From the IMG/VR virus record IMGVR_UViG_641736116_000024: a stretch of DNA of 25,340 nt; one strand, written 5' to 3'. The number at the start of each line of letters is the position of its first letter. Within the stretch, counting starts at the first letter, position 1. This document shows positions 1-18,807 of the stretch, in pieces. Both the position numbers and the translations under genes were made by a program. The notes under the pieces are model-generated. The model ran no database searches. It worked only from the letters and a program-made list of their open reading frames with translations, and was not told the DNA's origin. The DNA comes from a virus (Duplodnaviria; Heunggongvirae; Uroviricota; Caudoviricetes).

Positions 1-702
1 ATGACTTTAAAGCGTTTGCAACTGATCGAAATGCCAATGTTATGTCGCAGGAGGAATGGGAAGCGTTGCGTGCGCTTATATCCGGGATTTACAGCAGGGA
101 AAGCATCCAGTGCGCAAGTCAATAAGGTTATTCGGCAGGCCAGCTTTATTGCTGCAGCTCTGGCCCAGTTTGTAAGTGATAAAACGCAACGGGATGTGCT
201 TGATAATGGTGATCTGCCCGGTTTTGTTGAATTGCTGGGATCGGGGTTTGCTGTTGAATACCTGAGCCGCAAGAATCCGTTTGGCGATATCAAATCGGAC
301 GGCACGGTGAAAACGGCTTTCATAAACGTTGGTTTGGGAGAAGCGGCAAAACGGGATGTGGGGACAGGGGAAAATCAGATACCGGACATGGCCTCTTTTG
401 CCAGTGGTGATGGATGGATGAAATTACCCAACGGTAAAATCCTGCAATATGGTCGTGGTGCGGTTACGCCGACATTATCGACGCAAACAATGAGAATTAC
501 ATTCAGCATCCCTTTCCCCAAAAAAGCGGACTGCGCCATGCTTACTCATTCTGGTGATGGCGGTGCGCCTTTAGGCGCTGGGCGAGGGTTCGTGATGACT
601 GCAGAAGGCCCAACGTTAACCGGCTTTAATTCTGCTTACAGAACGTCATCAACCAGCGACACGGTATCGATGAATTACAGTTGGTGGGCTGTTGGTGAGT
701 AA
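1..702 (+). CDS. Silent (promoterless) alternative tail-fibre C-terminal cassette; the part from about 344 to 702 would fuse to the H N-terminus after inversion. Upstream part (1-343) may be a decayed remnant.
   Basis: Frame 1 is open from position 1 to the stop at 700-702 with no start context. It is followed immediately by its own tail-fibre assembly gene and lies opposite and convergent to H-G. It shares an in-frame GLGE-coding 15-mer with H at the proposed crossover site. Confidence 0.5.
317..342. promoter_or_regulatory. Candidate serine-invertase crossover site (cix/gix/hix-like), outer copy
   Basis: CTTTCATAAACG-TT-GGTTTGGGAGAA. The inner arm plus centre (329-343) is a perfect 15-bp inverted copy of 2219-2233; the outer arm is degenerate. 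Confidence 0.5.
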
Positions 703-722
703 TTTTATTCAGGGTGATTTAT

Positions 723-1166
723 ATGAACGAATATGTTTATAGCGCAAGGCATAATGCTTTTTTCCCTGTGGATATGATTGATAAATATAAATCAGAGGGA
801 TGGGATTTATCAGACGCTAAGGAAGTAAATCAAAATATTATCAGTGAGTTTATGGCTGAACCGCCACAAGGAAAAATCCGTATTGCCGGAGATGATGGGC
901 TGCCTGCGTGGGCAGATATTCCTCCACCCACGCATGAAGAACTTATTGAAATTACTGAATCAGAAAGACAGCTACTAATTAACCAGGCCAACGAATACAT
1001 GAACAGTAAGCAATGGCCCGGTAAAGCCGCTATTGGTCGTCTGAAAGGTGAGGAACTGGCACAATATAATTTGTGGCTGGATTATCTGGACGCACTGGAG
1101 CTGGTCGATACCGCCAGTGCGCCAGATATTGAATGGCCTACGCCTCCGGCAGTTCAGGCCAGATGA
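723..1166 (+). CDS. Tail fibre assembly protein (alternative copy, Tfa')
   Basis: C-terminus NLWLDYLDALELVDTASAPDIEWPTPP is the conserved Tfa/gpG-type tail. The ATG at 723 has AGGGTG upstream. Its 3' end overlaps the convergent G gene. Confidence 0.8.
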   Translation: MNEYVYSARHNAFFPVDMIDKYKSEGWDLSDAKEVNQNIISEFMAEPPQGKIRIAGDDGLPAWADIPPPTHEELIEITESERQLLINQANEYMNSKQWPGKAAIGRLKGEELAQYNLWLDYLDALELVDTASAPDIEWPTPPAVQAR

Positions 1167-1740
1167 CATCCGGCGCGGTGCTGGTATCTGTTGCCGTCAC
1201 CGCGTCAATGTAATCCAGCACCGTGTTAAGTCGGTTGGTTTCTGCCTGCGTCAGCTTCCGTCCGGCCTGTAATTTCAGCTGAATCAGACTAATGGAAGCC
1301 ATTGCAGTATCAATCAGCGACTGGCGTTGTGTTTCTGCCGCTTCTACTGCGGCGCTATGCTGTGCTTCGGTATCCGTCACCCATTTCTCACCATCCCATT
1401 TATCGTATGGCGTTAACGGGGCGATAGTGGTTGTATTATCAGGGTAATCACCCGGAGCGGTGATTTCTTTTGATTCTCCTGTTTCGGTGCTAAAGACGAT
1501 TTCACCGCGATGGTCTGGCACATATTCCCATGAGTTAAAATCTGCAGAACGGCAGATTGCATAACCAGCTTTGTATGCGCCTGGGGCATCTAAACAGGAA
1601 TATGCCGGAATGCCGACACCAATAGCAAGATATTCAGTTGAAGCTGAAATATATTCCCGACTCATGACATCAAAGTTATAAACAGTAATTTCTCCTGCCA
1701 TAGTGGCAATTAATTCACTGTTTAATTCTGCGTTATTCAT
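1138..1740 (-). CDS. G: Tail fibre assembly protein (P2 gpG-like)
   Basis: 200 aa; C-terminus LNTVLDYIDAVTATDTSTAPDVIWPELP is Tfa-type. Start overlaps the H stop by 1 nt. Confidence 0.85.
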   Translation of the reverse strand: MNNAELNSELIATMAGEITVYNFDVMSREYISASTEYLAIGVGIPAYSCLDAPGAYKAGYAICRSADFNSWEYVPDHRGEIVFSTETGESKEITAPGDYPDNTTTIAPLTPYDKWDGEKWVTDTEAQHSAAVEAAETQRQSLIDTAMASISLIQLKLQAGRKLTQAETNRLNTVLDYIDAVTATDTSTAPDVIWPELPEA

Positions 1741-3059
1741 TATGCAGCCCTCACAATATAGTTAAAAGCGACATTTCGTGGGCGTGTTTCATTCGCACCT
1801 GCAGGTTTAGTCGTTGCCGCAACAACACCACCCTCTGTAATAGCCGGGTTGGGAATTGGGTAATTATCGAAGTTAATGGCCGGAGACAGGGGCGTGATTT
1901 GTTTTAAAATCGTGGTGCCTGTAAAACTTTCCAGAGTCTGGTCGTTAGTTCGTGAAGTCCAGATTCCCCAATAGTGGTTATGACTGACAATCGCACCGTC
2001 CTGAAGCGTCAATAATCCCCTTCCGTTATCCACTCCACGTCCGTCATCCCAGCCACGAATAAACTCACCACGTAAATCAGGCAATTTATTTGTCGGGTAA
2101 ACCTTTGCCAGTTCCGGGTATTCTTCAGCAGAAAAAGCCGCCCCGTTGCATTTCAGCCAGCCTGTCGGCGGAGTGGCTGAAGGCCACGGAACAGGCACAC
2201 CAACGGGTAATGCCGAACCTTCTCCCAAACCAAGGTATGCGAGAAGACCGGCAACATCCTTTCCACTCAAATGAGTCAGCGTCTCATCCAGTGGCTGCTT
2301 ACCTGACAGCGCATTGTTAATGGTGGTGCTGAATTTCGGGTCATTGTTAATGGCCGCGGCAATTTCTTTCAGTGTGTCCAGCGTGTCTGGCGCGCCGTTA
2401 ATCAGAGCGGTAATAGCGGTCTGAACAAACTCAGTGGTCGCAATCCGCGTGGTGTTATTTCCTGCGGCAGGCGTTGGCGCTTTTGGTTCTCCGGTAAATG
2501 TCGGATTATGTTTCTGCGCATACTGGGTATGAGGATCCTGTGCGGCAATGTGGTTTCTCATCTGGTCATCCACATACAGCCTTAATTCCAGGACTTTATC
2601 ATCCACGTATTTACGGGTCGCCAGTACCACCGACGGGTCGATTTTCAGCGTGATGGCTTCGGTATTCGTGACAACCAGAATCATGCGGATAGTCTGGGTA
2701 CGACCGCTGCCTTCCTGTAACTGCGGTTTGTACGTTTCCGGGCAGTTCGCCACCGCAATGAGTACGCCTTCATCATCATAAAGCCCAATCTCACGGATCC
2801 AGAATCCGCCCTCGTTCTCAGGGATGATTTGCTCCGCAATAATCTGGCTCTGGTTGTTCGGGTCAACACTCAGAAGATTCAGCGGCGCGATGCGTTTCTG
2901 GTTAATAAGTTTTGTCTGTGCCGGGTCAGGTGTCGGCAAGACACCATTTGCATCACCAACGGCCATTTGCGTCAGATTCAGCTTACTGCCGAGCATCGTC
3001 GCGTTAGCCAGCCGTGCCGCGCCCTGATTAGTCAGAATGGCGTAGTATTTCACTGTCAT
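1740..3059 (-). CDS. H: Tail fibre protein H: P2-H-like N-terminal domain with a different C-terminal receptor-binding region carrying a phage tail-collar-like motif
   Basis: 439 aa. N-terminal about 150 aa follow the P2 gpH pattern (MAVGD, GGFW.RE.GLYDD.G.LIAVAN, YKP.L.EGSGR, YVDDK). C-terminal region contains GWLKCNGAAFSAEEYPELAKVY...LPDLRGEFIRGWDDGRG. Confidence 0.9.
   Translation of the reverse strand: MTVKYYAILTNQGAARLANATMLGSKLNLTQMAVGDANGVLPTPDPAQTKLINQKRIAPLNLLSVDPNNQSQIIAEQIIPENEGGFWIREIGLYDDEGVLIAVANCPETYKPQLQEGSGRTQTIRMILVVTNTEAITLKIDPSVVLATRKYVDDKVLELRLYVDDQMRNHIAAQDPHTQYAQKHNPTFTGEPKAPTPAAGNNTTRIATTEFVQTAITALINGAPDTLDTLKEIAAAINNDPKFSTTINNALSGKQPLDETLTHLSGKDVAGLLAYLGLGEGSALPVGVPVPWPSATPPTGWLKCNGAAFSAEEYPELAKVYPTNKLPDLRGEFIRGWDDGRGVDNGRGLLTLQDGAIVSHNHYWGIWTSRTNDQTLESFTGTTILKQITPLSPAINFDNYPIPNPAITEGGVVAATTKPAGANETRPRNVAFNYIVRAA
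2220..2245. promoter_or_regulatory. Candidate serine-invertase crossover site inside H (26-bp imperfect palindrome)
   Basis: TTCTCCCAAACC-AA-GGTATGCGAGAA; arms match 10/12 as inverted repeats. Close to the recalled hixL/gix pattern TTCTTGAAAACC-AA-GGTTTTTGATAA. Lies in frame at the YLGLGE codons of H. Confidence 0.55.
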
Positions 3060-3667
3060 GCGTTTACTCTCAGGTTATCAATTAAATGAATGGCCGAGGC
3101 CGGGAAATAATCCCCTCCGACAATAATGGCCTCCGGGGTGTAGGGATAAACCGTCAGGGCGTCGCCGTGATAGCATCCCGCACCGGCAAAAATGTTGCCG
3201 GTTGTACTTAAACTGATAGCCAGTCCCGTCAGATGGCGGCTTGCAGGTTTTGCATCAGCAACGAGACGCTCCAGCTCCTGATACATTTCCTCGGTAATAC
3301 CCTGCTCAAGCACGCCAACAACGATGCGGAACGTCCCCGGCTCCTCGTTGAGCTGCCACCACTCCCTCACCTCAATCAGATAGCCGAGCGGCTCCACCAC
3401 ACGGCGAATCGCACCAATAGTGCCCTTATGGCAGTGAATGAAATACGCATCGCGGATAACAGCGCGTTTTGTCGCTTCCGGCCACTTATCATCCCAGCGG
3501 TCAACCGAAAATGACCACGCCAGCCACGGCAGCAGATTTGCCGGACAGGTATCCGGGTTCCACAGCTCACGAATACTGACCGGCGTTTTTTCAATTTCCG
3601 CACAGGCTCTTGCGGCGGCGACTTCAAGCGGTGATGAGCCGGTCGGCAGCAGGCGCGAATCACTCAT
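3056..3667 (-). CDS. I: Baseplate assembly protein gpI
   Basis: 203 aa, N-terminus MSDSRLLPTGSSPLE typical of P2 gpI; position between J and H. Confidence 0.9.
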   Translation of the reverse strand: MSDSRLLPTGSSPLEVAAARACAEIEKTPVSIRELWNPDTCPANLLPWLAWSFSVDRWDDKWPEATKRAVIRDAYFIHCHKGTIGAIRRVVEPLGYLIEVREWWQLNEEPGTFRIVVGVLEQGITEEMYQELERLVADAKPASRHLTGLAISLSTTGNIFAGAGCYHGDALTVYPYTPEAIIVGGDYFPASAIHLIDNLRVNA

Positions 3668-5552: not shown

Positions 5553-5618
5553 AACGGGAAGGATGCCGCCGGGTCATACCGGCGGCAATGTGACGATGAG
5601 GTGCCAGGAATGGCACAA

Positions 5619-6551: not shown

Positions 6552-6785
6552 TTAATCATTTTTAACCTGGCTGGCACAGCGTGCCAGCGCGTTCTCAAGC
6601 TGCCGGATATCAGCACTTAAATCGCCGTTCGTCTGCGGGTCACTGCCCGGCATCGGGCAAAGGCTCACTTTCGGGCAGGCGTTGGCGACAATCACTGGCG
6701 TCTGCGCAGGCGGGGCGCTGGTGCAACCGGCGCACAGCATCAGGCAGGTCAGTGCCGTACCAGCGGCGAAAATCTTCGTTTTCAT
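6552..6785 (-). CDS. lysC: LysC, Rz1-like outer-membrane lipoprotein spanin, overlapping lysB in another frame
   Basis: Internal start MKTKIFAAGTALTCLMLCAGC gives a signal peptide plus lipobox (LCAGC). Gene overlaps the 3' part of lysB and extends beyond it. Confidence 0.8.
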   Translation of the reverse strand: MKTKIFAAGTALTCLMLCAGCTSAPPAQTPVIVANACPKVSLCPMPGSDPQTNGDLSADIRQLENALARCASQVKND

Positions 6786-15117: not shown

Positions 15118-17088
15118 TTAAAGGTCATCAATTAAACCTAAAGGCAAACCGTCCTCACCAACCGAGCTATAATGAGCGATAATATTCGAAAGTTCACCAG
15201 TAGAAAACGAATTAGGCAAATCATTATCAACTAATATAATCTGGCACGGAACATTTTTTCTTTCTGCTTTTTGAACTGTATTCAATAGTTGTTCATAAAT
15301 ATTTTGATACTTCATCGGATCTGACATTCCCTCAAGGTCATCCTCGAATGCAAGAGTTTCTTTTGAATATTTTTCCTTGGTCTGTTTCCCTAAATATTTG
15401 CCAACCGTATCAAATATCAAAAGTAAAGGATGGTTAACATTATGATCTATTGCATAATCAAGAATAGACAAAAGATACCCAATAGAAGAAATAGTTCTCA
15501 AACCTCCGGATGTTATTTTAAAATATTCTTTTTCTCTTATAACAGGAATGTAATAGCTTTCAGAGATTTTTATCCCCGTTCTGTTTTTGATATTAATACC
15601 CTTCAAATACTGACTAAATCTATCACCCAAACCTTGTAAAATGCCCTCCATGCTAGGTGCGTTTTTCTTTAACGCCTCCAAGCGTTCAGTTAATGCTTCA
15701 ATATCTTTTCTCAGTACCTGATACTTTTCAAGCAGTTCCTCTTGCTGGTTTCTAACCTTCAAATCTTTTACTAACTGCTCCCTAACCTTCTCATTTTTTG
15801 AGATCTCTTTAATATAAAAATCTCTCTGAGTCAAGAATGGTGTAATCATTGACTGGCTTTCTTCGTCAATCAATTCTCTCAACTCGTCAAGTCGTTCATC
15901 TAATTCCTTTTTATAACCTGATTCTTTTTTTAATTTAAATGACATTTCTGAGATCATGTCATTAATATTTCGTCTACGTCGACTAAGTGAATTCAACTCT
16001 TCATTAAGATCTTTTTCTGATGAAATTTCAAATGGAAAATCAGAATCATCTATTTTAATGTGGCTATCACAGACTGGACAGGAAAATACTTCCTTATCCA
16101 ATACACCAATGCGAGAATTTGCTGTTTTAATCGCTTTGAGTTTTTCAATATCATTATCATAGTCATTTTTTAACCGCGAATATTTATCAATCTTATCCTC
16201 AAGCGCAGTAATATTTAATATGCACTCTTTGTATTTAAGCGAAATAAAATTGTGAGCATCTTTCAATTCTGTATACTGTATGGAATCCGCTTTCATATTT
16301 TTATCGAGAGCAGACAAACCTGCAACAAGTTCTTCTAAAACAAGATCTATCCTATTAATCTCATCATCAATTGATTCAATCGTTTCATAGTCTGTATCGC
16401 GAAGAAATTCAGATATTATCTGATACTTCCTATTTAATTCCGTTACTAAACTACTTTTTGCAGATATTTCACCTTGGAGTCTGGCGATGCTTTCATCCAA
16501 CACATTGAACATGTATTTAAAAACTTCTTTCGTAAATGCGTAGCGGGACCAATCACCCAATCGCAAGAAAGATTTACTACCAATATCATCCTGACTTACA
16601 TAAACAAATTTATATATATTTCTAAAACTTAACCTGCGCATCTGTGAATGAGCTTTAGAAGGAGACACCTTAATTTCAATCTTTGGAAAATTAAGACTAT
16701 CAAGTAAAAACTCCGAAAAAACACCATCAACATTTGATAATGGGCTATAATTAGGAGCGTATTTTTTCGGAAAATGTTTATGTAAATCATCAAACTTACA
16801 ACGATAAACTTCTATTGCTTTTTTATGATCATAGATATCTCTTACGATTGTGAATACAGTATCATTGATCACTACTTCAAGAGCAGCATAGTTTACTGAT
16901 GTTTTTATTTCATCTGCTAAATCTATAGAGCTAGCACCTAAAAGATAATTAATAAACTCCAGAATGCTTGACTTACCTGTGTCAGAGTCTCCGTAGATAA
17001 CATTGAGACCTTTATAAAAAGTAGTGACGTAGTTTTTACGAACGCCAACAAGAATCAAACTATTGATATTGAGATATGATTTCATCAT
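15118..17088 (-). CDS. ABC/SMC-Rad50-like ATPase with central coiled coil and CxxC zinc hook; ATPase component of an ABC-three-component (Lamassu-like) system
   Basis: 656 aa. Walker A GDSDTGKS (aa 33-40); long charged, heptad-rich middle containing CPVCDSH; C-terminal signature-like KITSGGLR; Walker B/D-loop LLLIFDTVG. No TOPRIM or nuclease domain recognised. Start overlaps the upstream stop (ATGA). Confidence 0.75.
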   Translation of the reverse strand: MMKSYLNINSLILVGVRKNYVTTFYKGLNVIYGDSDTGKSSILEFINYLLGASSIDLADEIKTSVNYAALEVVINDTVFTIVRDIYDHKKAIEVYRCKFDDLHKHFPKKYAPNYSPLSNVDGVFSEFLLDSLNFPKIEIKVSPSKAHSQMRRLSFRNIYKFVYVSQDDIGSKSFLRLGDWSRYAFTKEVFKYMFNVLDESIARLQGEISAKSSLVTELNRKYQIISEFLRDTDYETIESIDDEINRIDLVLEELVAGLSALDKNMKADSIQYTELKDAHNFISLKYKECILNITALEDKIDKYSRLKNDYDNDIEKLKAIKTANSRIGVLDKEVFSCPVCDSHIKIDDSDFPFEISSEKDLNEELNSLSRRRRNINDMISEMSFKLKKESGYKKELDERLDELRELIDEESQSMITPFLTQRDFYIKEISKNEKVREQLVKDLKVRNQQEELLEKYQVLRKDIEALTERLEALKKNAPSMEGILQGLGDRFSQYLKGINIKNRTGIKISESYYIPVIREKEYFKITSGGLRTISSIGYLLSILDYAIDHNVNHPLLLIFDTVGKYLGKQTKEKYSKETLAFEDDLEGMSDPMKYQNIYEQLLNTVQKAERKNVPCQIILVDNDLPNSFSTGELSNIIAHYSSVGEDGLPLGLIDDL

Positions 17089-17597
17089 TTCTCCTTGAAG
17101 ACTTGATTTATAACAGAGTTTAACTTAGAGGTAGGCAATGCTTGTAGCGGTAACAATGCTTCGGATAGTCGTTTTATTTCTTTAAAATATCCATCAGTCA
17201 ATGAGCTAGCAAATTCCTTACCTTTTTCAGATAAAAATAATTTAACACTCTCATTATTTTTTTTCTCAGCTGAGAGCAATCCCCGCAATGACATAATTTT
17301 TATAAGATATTTCACTTTGGAATTGTCGAATAAGATATCTACATTTGTTGAAAAACTCTTTATTGTATAAGTTAACTGGGACTCGACACAAGCAGGCTTT
17401 TTCCCCGAAACTGTAAGAGCATAATCAATTTTTGATGGGTTTTTTATCAGATACATAAAAATTTGTATTTTATTAATATCTAATGATAACACTCCTTTTT
17501 TGCTATGAGATAATATAGATATAGCAATGGCAAGCATAGCAAAATTCAAGCTATACTCTTCATCAAGAGGAATATACGGCAAGTTATTTTTCTTCAT
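17085..17597 (-). CDS. Small middle component of the three-gene system (LmuC-like position)
   Basis: 170 aa with no recognisable motifs; AT-rich; translationally coupled on both sides (14-nt and 4-nt overlaps). Confidence 0.5.
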   Translation of the reverse strand: MKKNNLPYIPLDEEYSLNFAMLAIAISILSHSKKGVLSLDINKIQIFMYLIKNPSKIDYALTVSGKKPACVESQLTYTIKSFSTNVDILFDNSKVKYLIKIMSLRGLLSAEKKNNESVKLFLSEKGKEFASSLTDGYFKEIKRLSEALLPLQALPTSKLNSVINQVFKEK

Positions 17598-18807
17598 GAT
17601 TACCTCGCCGTAATTGCTCCAAAGTTTCTACGCTGGTTTCAGATGACCAGACAATATCCCTGTCATTTTTGTTAGCCAGTTGATGCAACATTCCTTTCTT
17701 ATGTATCGTTTCTAAACTTTTTATAAGAGAATCTAACGACGACTTATCCTCTTGGGCTATTCGTCTATGAACAGCAGCAATAAATTTATCTGGGGAAATT
17801 GAATTCGCGATATATTGCTCATACTCTTCCTGGTAAATCTCCCTTATTTTAGAATACAAATGACCAAGTAGTTTCCTATCGTAATCACTCGTAAAAATAT
17901 TTCTCGCAAGCTCAGCATTATAATAATATTCCTTTGCATGCATAGCGATATCCTGATGTATATCTGCGACAATCATTTTTAAGACGAAATACTCATTATC
18001 ATATTGTTTCTCATCAGAAAAACGCTCAACACATATCTTCTTGGGTGCTTCTAAATTTATCTGCTGAATAAATTGCTTTACCGCAACAAACACTGTAGAC
18101 GAGCTGTTTTCGGGCTTGCAAATTGAGCTATGCCCTTCATTAACTGCAATTGAGTTATTTCGTTCACTATCCATCGGTAATGCGCTTTTTTTATCAACTA
18201 TAGTGTCATGAGAACCATAAACATATCTAGTGATAGGAAGTTTTTTGCTACAATTTATCCAGCGCCTATTCAACGTATCGGTCGCTTCACTTAACAATCC
18301 AAGATCTACTAACTGAGCATTTGAAGATACCATTGAAGTTATATTCGCCAATTTAGCACCAAAGTGAGGGACTGCTAACGAAATGAATCCAATTATATTA
18401 GATTGTTCCTCATGCTCAACTTTTTTTAGAATTAGATTTTTTGATATTACCCCCCCCATACTATGGGCGATTATTATAATTCGAGAGTAATCACTTAGCG
18501 TTACCCTAATCTCAGTATACAATAACTCAGCTATTTCATCAGTTGGTAAATTTCTCTCTAACTTATTTTTCTTAGAGAAAATACGAGCCCATAATCCTGA
18601 CGTTTTAGCATACGTTTGTGTAAATTTGGTGAAATAATTGAAACATGCAATATCAAATACATTGCCAATGTCTTCATCTTCTGCTAATAGTTTTGGAAAT
18701 GAAGTTTCTTTATTAAAGTTCCATGTTTCCAAACCACCATTTAATCCATGTACAAATAGTATCAGGCTATCTTTTTTCTCGTGGCTTATCCATTCAACCA
18801 TGCTCAT
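17584..18807 (-). CDS. Alpha/beta-hydrolase (lipase/esterase-like) effector with a C-terminal helical domain; LmuA-like effector position
   Basis: 407 aa. Oxyanion-hole LILFVHG (His20-Gly21), nucleophile elbow IIIAHSMGG (Ser116), downstream YVYGSHDTIVD and NEGHSS as candidate Asp/His. C-terminal about 180 aa is helical and charged. Confidence 0.7.
   Translation of the reverse strand: MSMVEWISHEKKDSLILFVHGLNGGLETWNFNKETSFPKLLAEDEDIGNVFDIACFNYFTKFTQTYAKTSGLWARIFSKKNKLERNLPTDEIAELLYTEIRVTLSDYSRIIIIAHSMGGVISKNLILKKVEHEEQSNIIGFISLAVPHFGAKLANITSMVSSNAQLVDLGLLSEATDTLNRRWINCSKKLPITRYVYGSHDTIVDKKSALPMDSERNNSIAVNEGHSSICKPENSSSTVFVAVKQFIQQINLEAPKKICVERFSDEKQYDNEYFVLKMIVADIHQDIAMHAKEYYYNAELARNIFTSDYDRKLLGHLYSKIREIYQEEYEQYIANSISPDKFIAAVHRRIAQEDKSSLDSLIKSLETIHKKGMLHQLANKNDRDIVWSSETSVETLEQLRRGNHEEK

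Follow-up and report, generated by a model that had tools for sequence, protein, structure and literature searches.

The G segment of phage Mu (Gin), the C segment of P1 (Cin) and the Hin system of Salmonella share one mechanism class, with a serine invertase, 26-bp crossover sites and a 2-bp core, to which the locus described here also belongs. As in Mu and P1, the parts exchanged here are fibre C-termini with their chaperones, swapped in frame. This type of switch is well known and its mechanism is textbook material; among P2-like elements it has been annotated in phage pro483 and shown experimentally in prophages (PMC4272514). Inversion in the P2-like prophages of EPEC E2348/69 was demonstrated by sequencing and PCR (Goldberg et al. 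2014, PMC4272514), and 26-bp crossover sites together with trans action have been described for prophages of EC958 (PMC4134206). Trans action is also known for PinQ of the Qin prophage, which inverts the P segment of e14 (PMC12529663). Canonical P2 differs from these elements: fun(Z) occupies the place between FI and the terminator of the V operon, which ends with G, and there is no invertible segment, as the first-pass annotation of the present DNA had rightly stated.

The window, that is the whole stretch of 25,340 nt analysed here, is 99.992% identical over positions 318-25340 to the P2-like prophage inserted at yegQ/yegR in E. coli O157:H7 TW14359; the yegQ-yegR site of strain Sakai is empty and carries no prophage. 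The best overall explanation of positions 317-2245, and one in which we place high confidence, is that a P2-like E. coli O157:H7 prophage carries here an invertible tail-fibre segment of the Pin/Gin family, about 1.9 kb long. Its crossover sites, their in-frame geometry, the two natural orientations and the invertase beside the segment in relatives are all established directly, and more than 100 public genomes hold the same element, in both orientations. A described phage counterpart is the Peduovirus pro483, whose segment is 97.4% identical, likewise lies between H and FI and adjoins a gene annotated as a DNA invertase; the deposited pro483 sequence shows the flipped state, opposite to that of the window.

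The sites enclose two mirror-image pairs, each consisting of a fibre tip and its chaperone, and the window as given holds the segment in the H::Hc state. The fibre gene H (1740-3059, minus strand) encodes 439 aa with Pfam Phage_tail_fib and Collar domains. Its constant N-terminal part (2246-3059, minus strand; Phage_tail_fib N-terminal domain, E=2e-62), which is not moved when the segment flips, anchors the fibre to the baseplate; the constant portion amounts to 280 residues, about 271 of them beyond the site. The variable C-terminus now expressed, Hc (1740-2219, minus strand), is 159 aa long, contains the Collar domain and matches PHROG tail-collar fibre families. It is followed by tfa (1138-1740, minus strand), a G-like gene for a 200-aa chaperone of the current tip (Caudo_TAP, E=1e-32). 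On the plus strand lie H'c (343-702; 119 aa and a stop codon; Gp53-like_C), an alternative fibre C-terminal cassette that is not joined to H here, and tfa' (723-1166; 147 aa; Caudo_TAP, E=8e-31), its paired chaperone gene. The two tfa genes are convergent and overlap at their 3' ends, as had been noticed earlier, by 29 nt (1138-1166). H'c had been taken at first for a promoterless, silent cassette; this does not hold, and H'c is no orphan here, since its reading frame is open as far as the first base of the window (ORF 1-702) and is fused to the N-terminal part of another fibre gene. A scan of positions 1-3300 for promoters and terminators was uninformative, with matches no commoner than in shuffled sequence.

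The left crossover site (317-342) is a 26-bp sequence, CTTTCATAAACG TT GGTTTGGGAGAA, with its core dinucleotide at 329-330. The right site (2220-2245) lies inside H and reads TTCTCCCAAACC AA GGTATGCGAGAA on the plus strand, with its core at 2232-2233; on the coding strand of H (2245-2220) it is TTCTCGCATACC TT GGTTTGGGAGAA. The two are thus inverted relative to each other, with the same 12-2-12 layout, a shared TT/AA core and an identical inner arm, and both encode GLGE in frame. The first-pass annotation had recognised the 26-bp site within H at these coordinates and an inverted 15-bp copy of its arm at 329-343; the inverted copy is indeed there, as part of a full 26-bp site (317-342) and not as an arm alone. 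The best inverted repeat within 1-3200 pairs 326-343 with 2219-2236 (18 nt, one mismatch). The 14-mer TTCTCCCAAACCAA occurs exactly twice in the 25 kb, on opposite strands, and allowing two mismatches still yields only two copies of the arm, for a chance expectation of about 0.23. A chance repeat is ruled out by these two sole occurrences in the window, both in frame, and by natural breakpoints that fall at the arms; a shufflon or multiple-inversion system of the p15B Min type, with more than two sites, is ruled out by the presence of two sites only in 25 kb. The locus differs in this respect from the EPEC E2348/69 prophage that carries three repeats and four variants in a shufflon-like array (PMC4272514).

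Flipping the segment in silico joins H 3059-2234 to 329-702 and gives an uninterrupted ORF of 399 aa, in which 280 residues are constant and 119 come from the alternative tip. This agrees with the earlier proposal that inversion supplies H with an alternative C-terminus of about 120 aa, and the product exists in nature: 76 complete E. coli genomes, EC4115 among them, have H'c joined to H and match the synthetic flipped junction over its full length at 99.8-100% identity. The 399-aa protein of the flipped state also appears in the gene calls of pro483 and of further assemblies (loci L006 and L008). The junction of the window state is found in 49 complete genomes. TW14359 has the orientation of the window and EC4115, with essentially the same prophage, the opposite one: its entire segment is inverted, its flanks are unchanged and its invertase protein is the same (WP_000905094.1). 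The EC4115 breakpoints, seen as matches to 326-2233 and to 2219-3200, lie within the common arm of 15-18 nt (2219-2233 at the right site). Such occurrence of both orientations in complete genomes upholds the initial view of a segment of the Gin/Cin/Hin type offering two H C-termini, each with its own chaperone.

Orientation differences among genomes mean that inversion happens; they speak neither to its rate nor to the enzyme. As they leave the enzyme unnamed and the identity between the sites is short, the repeats could be regarded as a relic of mosaic tail-fibre evolution, with opposite orientations arising through rare RecA-dependent recombination and no dedicated invertase involved. This account is most improbable. 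Efficient homologous recombination requires far more identity than 15-18 nt, and a split close to 40:60 among O157:H7 genomes that are nearly clonal implies that the segment flips often. Moreover, the sites are pix/gix-like in sequence, have the 12-2-12 layout and are adjoined by an intact Gin-like invertase.

Among known systems, the P segment with PinE of the defective prophage e14 (E. coli K-12) and its copy in the O157:H7 remnant CP-933H are close to the present one. Both have the same inner arm and TT core as the present locus, and the same mirror order of fibre tip, chaperone, chaperone, fibre tip and invertase. The invertase-side site of e14 is identical at 26 of 26 positions to that of the P2-like relatives, and 11 of the 12 flanking bases agree too. 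Similarity between the variable parts is uneven: TfaE of e14 is 86% identical to tfa, whereas TfaP shares only 53% with tfa' and the C-terminal tip of StfE only 57% with Hc; the CP-933H segment is 97% identical to half of the P2-like one. The segments differ in length (about 1.9 kb here, 1,797 bp in e14; PMC12529663) and, above all, in the constant part to which they are attached, a P2-type H (Phage_tail_fib) in an otherwise complete P2-like prophage here but a short fibre of the SfV/e14 type in e14 and CP-933H. Mu is more distant: its segment is about 3 kb long, has no DNA similarity inside to that of the window, and is bounded by gix sites with different arms (TTCCTGTAAACC GA GGTTTTGGATAA).

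In all near-identical relatives examined (TW14359, EC4115, pro483 and the loci L005, L006 and L008), a serine invertase gene stands next to the segment. The 197-aa protein, whose gene starts 55 bp outside the left site, has Resolvase and HTH_7 domains and matches Mu Gin (PDB 3UJ3) with E=1e-93; it is 89% identical to PinE of CP-933H, 86% to PinE of e14 and 77% to Gin, and Ser9 is conserved. Matches to the Fis consensus, a degenerate motif, occur at gene positions 30 and 78, exactly 48 bp apart, in all four invertase genes compared, pinE and gin included; the pair has the same place in the Mu gene. The window itself contains no invertase gene (tblastn, best E=5) and no copy of the two enhancer-like sequences within its 25 kb. 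The first-pass annotation had expected the invertase and a Fis-dependent enhancer just left of the window; the normal arrangement would instead put the start codon and the enhancer-like sites inside it, at about 261, 232 and 184, where they are absent and positions 1-317 hold a fragment of a fibre gene.

This left flank sets the window apart from all its relatives, which carry the invertase-side flank, and has no match at this position in TW14359. Positions 1-316 (plus strand) correspond to the 5' constant part of a short tail-fibre gene of the SfV/e14 type, resembling those of SfV, SfI and SfII; it matches PHROG tail-fibre families, and its nearest counterpart is the "gp53-like" gene (236 aa) of CP-933H, the remnant located at thrW. 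The fragment is foreign to the P2-like prophage. Compared with CP-933H of strain F7386, positions 1-317 show two differences, a substitution at 70 and an extra G at 84 that causes a frameshift. Other donors are less close than CP-933H: locus L007 is only 95% identical, and SfV-type phages reach about 94% over roughly half of a 146-nt query. The CP-933H fibre gene also occurs on the "plasmid" pAR-0428-2, but this proved to be a piece of ordinary chromosome in which CP-933H has its normal layout. At the crossover site itself, the outer arm belongs to the invertase-proximal type (e14 pix-type), and 318-342 shows no difference from the invertase-side sites of TW14359, CP-933H, L007 and e14. An invertase-mediated crossover between the fibre site of CP-933H and the invertase-side site of the P2-like prophage was rejected as the origin of 1-317, for it would have left a CP-933H-type outer arm (CTCTTCAAAACC) and the two sites are direct repeats 2.4 Mb apart; nor does any inversion among the four sites, enumerated on paper, yield the arrangement of the window.

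It seems rather more probable than otherwise that the left junction is an artefact, in which 1-317 was joined by misassembly or consensus polishing to a locus whose true organisation is that of TW14359, where the invertase gene starts 55 bp outside the left site. Its cause would be a stretch of about 1.1 kb, 97% identical, common to the CP-933H and P2-like invertible segments. The junction lies at the outer edge of the site (317/318), with 1 nt of microhomology, and not at the TT core (329-330) where the invertase exchanges strands. A genuine join between direct repeats so far apart would delete 2.4-3.0 Mb, and 5,426 complete E. coli genomes, INPHARED phage records, PLSDB, IMG/VR, GTDB representatives and JGI metagenomes gave no instance of the exact junction. 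The 317 nt contain two private differences, one of them a homopolymer indel, against only two in the other 25,023 nt, and draft-assembly contigs often break inside the segment (as at loci L009-L012). Against an artefact, junction k-mers cannot be invented by a de Bruijn assembler, so that an overlap-consensus or polishing step must be assumed; and both ends of the window fall on gene boundaries, from which it follows that the source extends leftward and was annotated as one sequence. An artefact of this kind would touch the left flank only and is compatible with the invertible-segment explanation.

A genuine left junction is possible but rather unlikely. The segment would then have been parted from the invertase, the enhancer and the tail genes from FI to ogr, and the 5' part of the CP-933H fibre gene would now abut it; the prophage would be defective, and the switch would be either frozen as H::Hc or served by an invertase acting in trans, such as PinE, with no enhancer in cis. 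The sequence as given does read so, 25 kb contain neither invertase nor enhancer, and pinE is present at CP-933H in O157:H7 genomes. Furthermore, the left site keeps 25 of its 26 positions, its first base being C as in the fibre-gene sites of CP-933H and e14. Such a junction nevertheless lies away from the crossover core, has no second instance in the databases searched, and would require the multi-megabase loss from a single-copy chromosome. If it were real, it might have come about through a multi-megabase duplication that was only transient, or through illegitimate joining at the border of the crossover site. The segment might then lie between the constant parts of two fibre genes, the P2-type H to its right and the SfV/e14-type short fibre of CP-933H to its left, so that one inversion would swap tips reciprocally between unrelated fibre genes and the junction would record an exchange between Pin systems normally 2.4 Mb apart; we consider this improbable.

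For the invertible segment as such, the expected mechanism is that of its class. Dimers of a serine DNA invertase would bind the two inverted 26-bp sites, cut at the central TT/AA dinucleotide and exchange strands, inverting all of 331-2231. We infer that catalysis is due to the adjoining invertase, to PinE in trans or to both, and inversion presumably depends on Fis and the enhancer. The constant N-terminus of H (280 residues), which the late operon transcribes together with V-W-J-I, would continue into Hc, a collar-type tip of 159 aa with tfa behind it, or into H'c, a gp53-like tip of 119 aa with tfa' behind it. Of the two tip and chaperone pairs, just the one facing the constant part would be expressed, and a lysogen population would therefore release virions with one of two receptor-binding tips, a form of host-range bet-hedging in which the two tips may confer different host ranges. 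Since 1-317 is unlike every relative and the window has neither invertase nor enhancer, any activity of this particular sequence is putative.

As a standard host-range flip-switch, the segment has little importance beyond correct annotation: Hc and H'c are alternative ends of a single gene, not separate or partial genes, and in assemblies of O157:H7 the segment often causes contigs to break or to be joined into chimeras. Strains of this O157:H7 lineage carry two Pin-type systems, that of the P2-like prophage and that of CP-933H; their inner arms are identical, which makes cross-talk between them likely. Trans-acting Pin enzymes have been reported to invert segments of cryptic prophages and thereby to block phage adsorption (PMC12529663), and possible cross-talk between the two Pin systems bears on this trans inversion.

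The tail-fibre gene H (1740-3059, minus strand) encodes a 439-aa protein with Phage_tail_fib N-terminal and Collar domains (Pfam), and its chaperone gene tfa occupies 1138-1740 on the same strand. Opposite H, on the plus strand, lie an alternative fibre C-terminal cassette, H'c, which ends at 702 and carries a Gp53-like_C domain (Pfam), and a second chaperone gene, tfa' (723-1166). Both chaperones belong to the Caudo_TAP family (Pfam) and their genes overlap by 29 nt. H'c and the tip currently joined to H (Hc) were both assigned to tail-fibre families (PHROGs). The top inverted repeat within positions 1-3200 pairs 326-343 with 2219-2236 (18 nt, one mismatch), and the 25 kb contain exactly two copies of the 14-nt arm, one on each strand. 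On the coding strand, the right site (2220-2245, inside H) reads TTCTCGCATACC TT GGTTTGGGAGAA and the left site (317-342) reads CTTTCATAAACG TT GGTTTGGGAGAA; both follow the 12-2-12 layout known for invertase crossover sites, with ...GLGE encoded in frame. When H is joined in silico at the core to 329-702, the reading frame stays open for 399 aa, of which 280 are constant and 119 new, in agreement with the fusion to a C-terminus of about 120 aa proposed in the first-pass annotation. The description of the fibre genes, repeat and in-frame GLGE given there is confirmed as accurate, except that the left repeat, correctly described as inverted and in frame, is a complete 26-bp site and not a 15-bp copy of one arm.

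The proposal of a two-state invertible segment is supported by natural variation. A synthetic 939-nt flipped junction, in which the constant part of H is joined to H'c and tfa', has full-length matches of 99.8-100% identity in 76 complete E. coli genomes, including that of EC4115, and the equivalent 939 nt of the window orientation is present in 49. In EC4115 the flanks are unchanged and the entire segment between them is reversed; the breakpoints fall within the shared arm (window 326-2233 and 2219-3200 align in opposite orientations). TW14359 and EC4115 are presumably isolates of one 2006 outbreak and, if so, the flip between them is recent. In the gene calls of other assemblies, H is 399 aa long when the segment is flipped and 439 aa long when it is not. 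Phage pro483 (Peduovirus) carries a flipped segment 97.4% identical to that of the window. In the flipped EC4115 locus (L004, 3642-4841), PGAP annotates H as a 'partial' pseudogene together with a separate gp53-like gene, probably an annotation problem given the single 399-aa call elsewhere. Contigs of several draft assemblies (L009-L012) stop inside the segment or at its edges (window ~564-676 and 2170-2214), and some of these drafts isolate the segment as a ~1.5-kb contig; such ends fit repeat or inversion heterogeneity.

The window from 318 to 25340 is 99.992% identical to the P2-like prophage of E. coli O157:H7 TW14359 (NC_013008.1, 2813864-2838885), located in the yegQ-yegR interval, from which it differs by one substitution and one single-base indel. 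Its right end is exactly the yegR start codon; the yegQ-yegR site of strain Sakai is empty. Read from the right, the genes follow the P2 order: int, C/cox, replication genes, a three-gene insert, Q P O N M L, lysis genes and R S V W J I H G. The substitution, private to the window, is at 5604, and an additional A at 6564, relative to TW14359 and five other prophage copies, causes a frameshift close to the 3' end of lysC. The three-gene insert (15118-18807, minus strand), between portal gene Q and replication gene A, matches a Lamassu defence system (PADLOC: LmuA, E=4e-108; LmuC, E=2e-52; LmuB, E=2e-235) and is labelled by PGAP as 'ABC-three component system' and AAA ATPase.

Immediately beyond the left site, TW14359, EC4115, three other loci (L005, L006 and L008) and pro483 carry a 197-aa gene, after which comes FI, the tail sheath gene; 55 bp separate the site from the start codon of the 197-aa gene in TW14359. 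Its product combines Resolvase and HTH_7 domains, is similar to Mu Gin (PDB 3UJ3, E=1e-93), retains Ser9, and is 89, 86 and 77% identical to PinE of CP-933H (the O157:H7 prophage remnant at thrW), PinE of e14 and Gin, respectively. Two degenerate Fis-consensus matches exactly 48 bp apart, centred at gene positions 30 and 78, are identically placed in the relatives' invertase gene, both pinE genes and gin. The Hin and Gin enhancers occupy this same place; the motif is weak, and the matches are at most consistent with an enhancer. The first-pass annotation had proposed to look for a serine invertase gene and a Fis-dependent enhancer just left of the window. A serine invertase does adjoin the left site in relatives; neither its gene nor a copy of the enhancer-like sites was found in the window, although the normal layout would put the invertase start and these sites at ~184-261.

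Bases 1-317 may reflect a chimera or a real rearrangement. They have no match in TW14359. They match the 5' part of a 236-aa short tail-fibre gene of CP-933H, apart from a substitution at base 70 and a frameshifting G inserted at base 84; in tail modules of the SfV/e14 type (including that of locus L007) this gene is the complete fibre. A Pin segment and a pinE gene of its own are present in CP-933H. P2-like sequence replaces CP-933H-like sequence at 317/318, on the outer boundary of the left site, with 1-base microhomology, and the outer arm belongs entirely to the invertase-side type. Had strands been exchanged at the core, the arm would instead be that of CP-933H, CTCTTCAAAACC, and none of the inversions among the four sites that we enumerated produces the junction. 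Where a genome has both loci, the two sites involved are direct repeats ~2.4 Mb apart, which makes this a deletion-type junction. It has no exact match in 5,426 complete E. coli genomes, phage and plasmid records, IMG/VR, GTDB representatives or JGI metagenomes, and no ORF product peculiar to the window is on record. Bases 1-317 hold two private differences, as against only two in the remaining 25 kb. Because of its position at the edge of the site, not at the core as strand exchange requires, its deletion type, its absence from databases and this clustering, the junction is probably a chimeric consensus across the ~1.1-kb, 97%-identical repeat common to both segments; a real rearrangement is the less likely cause.

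CP-933H, as in F7386 (L002, 7316-9808), carries a second Pin-type segment with pinE in the same genomes as the P2-like prophage. This segment shares identical inner arms and an identical invertase-side site with the P2-like one, and half of it is 97% identical, which makes cross-talk between them likely. A 46.9-kb linear record (NZ_CP044147.1, 'plasmid pAR-0428-2') is a chromosomal fragment (fadE...proA, thrW, CP-933H) with a P4-like satellite (ogr/Delta-like, Psu-like, primase) next to CP-933H.

The invertase-side site is identical in e14, CP-933H, L007 and the P2-like prophage, and 11 or all 12 flanking bases agree. TfaE, the StfE tip and TfaP of the e14 P segment are 86, 57 and 53% identical to tfa, Hc and tfa', respectively; the window's segment is a mosaic relative of that segment. 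The Mu G segment is without DNA similarity to it, and canonical P2, rightly said to lack such a segment, carries fun(Z) there without an invertase. Inversion has been demonstrated in EPEC P2-like prophages by sequencing and PCR (PMC4272514), and 26-bp sites with probable trans action have been described in EC958 prophages (PMC4134206). The e14 segment is inverted in trans by PinQ of the Qin prophage (PMC12529663), and in systematic surveys of inversions tail-fibre genes form a leading class (PMC9881135). Our literature search found no paper on the switch of this O157:H7 prophage; public genomes nevertheless contain the element in both states, and it is annotated in pro483.

The mechanism would be that common to Mu G/Gin, P1 C/Cin and e14 P/Pin. 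The invertase would exchange strands at the TT core and reverse 331-2231, presumably assisted by Fis on a cis enhancer, as is established for the Gin/Pin/Hin-type family. The late-operon transcript V-W-J-I-H would then read either Hc and tfa or H'c and tfa', and individual lysogens would release phage with one of two tips, with a predicted effect on host range.
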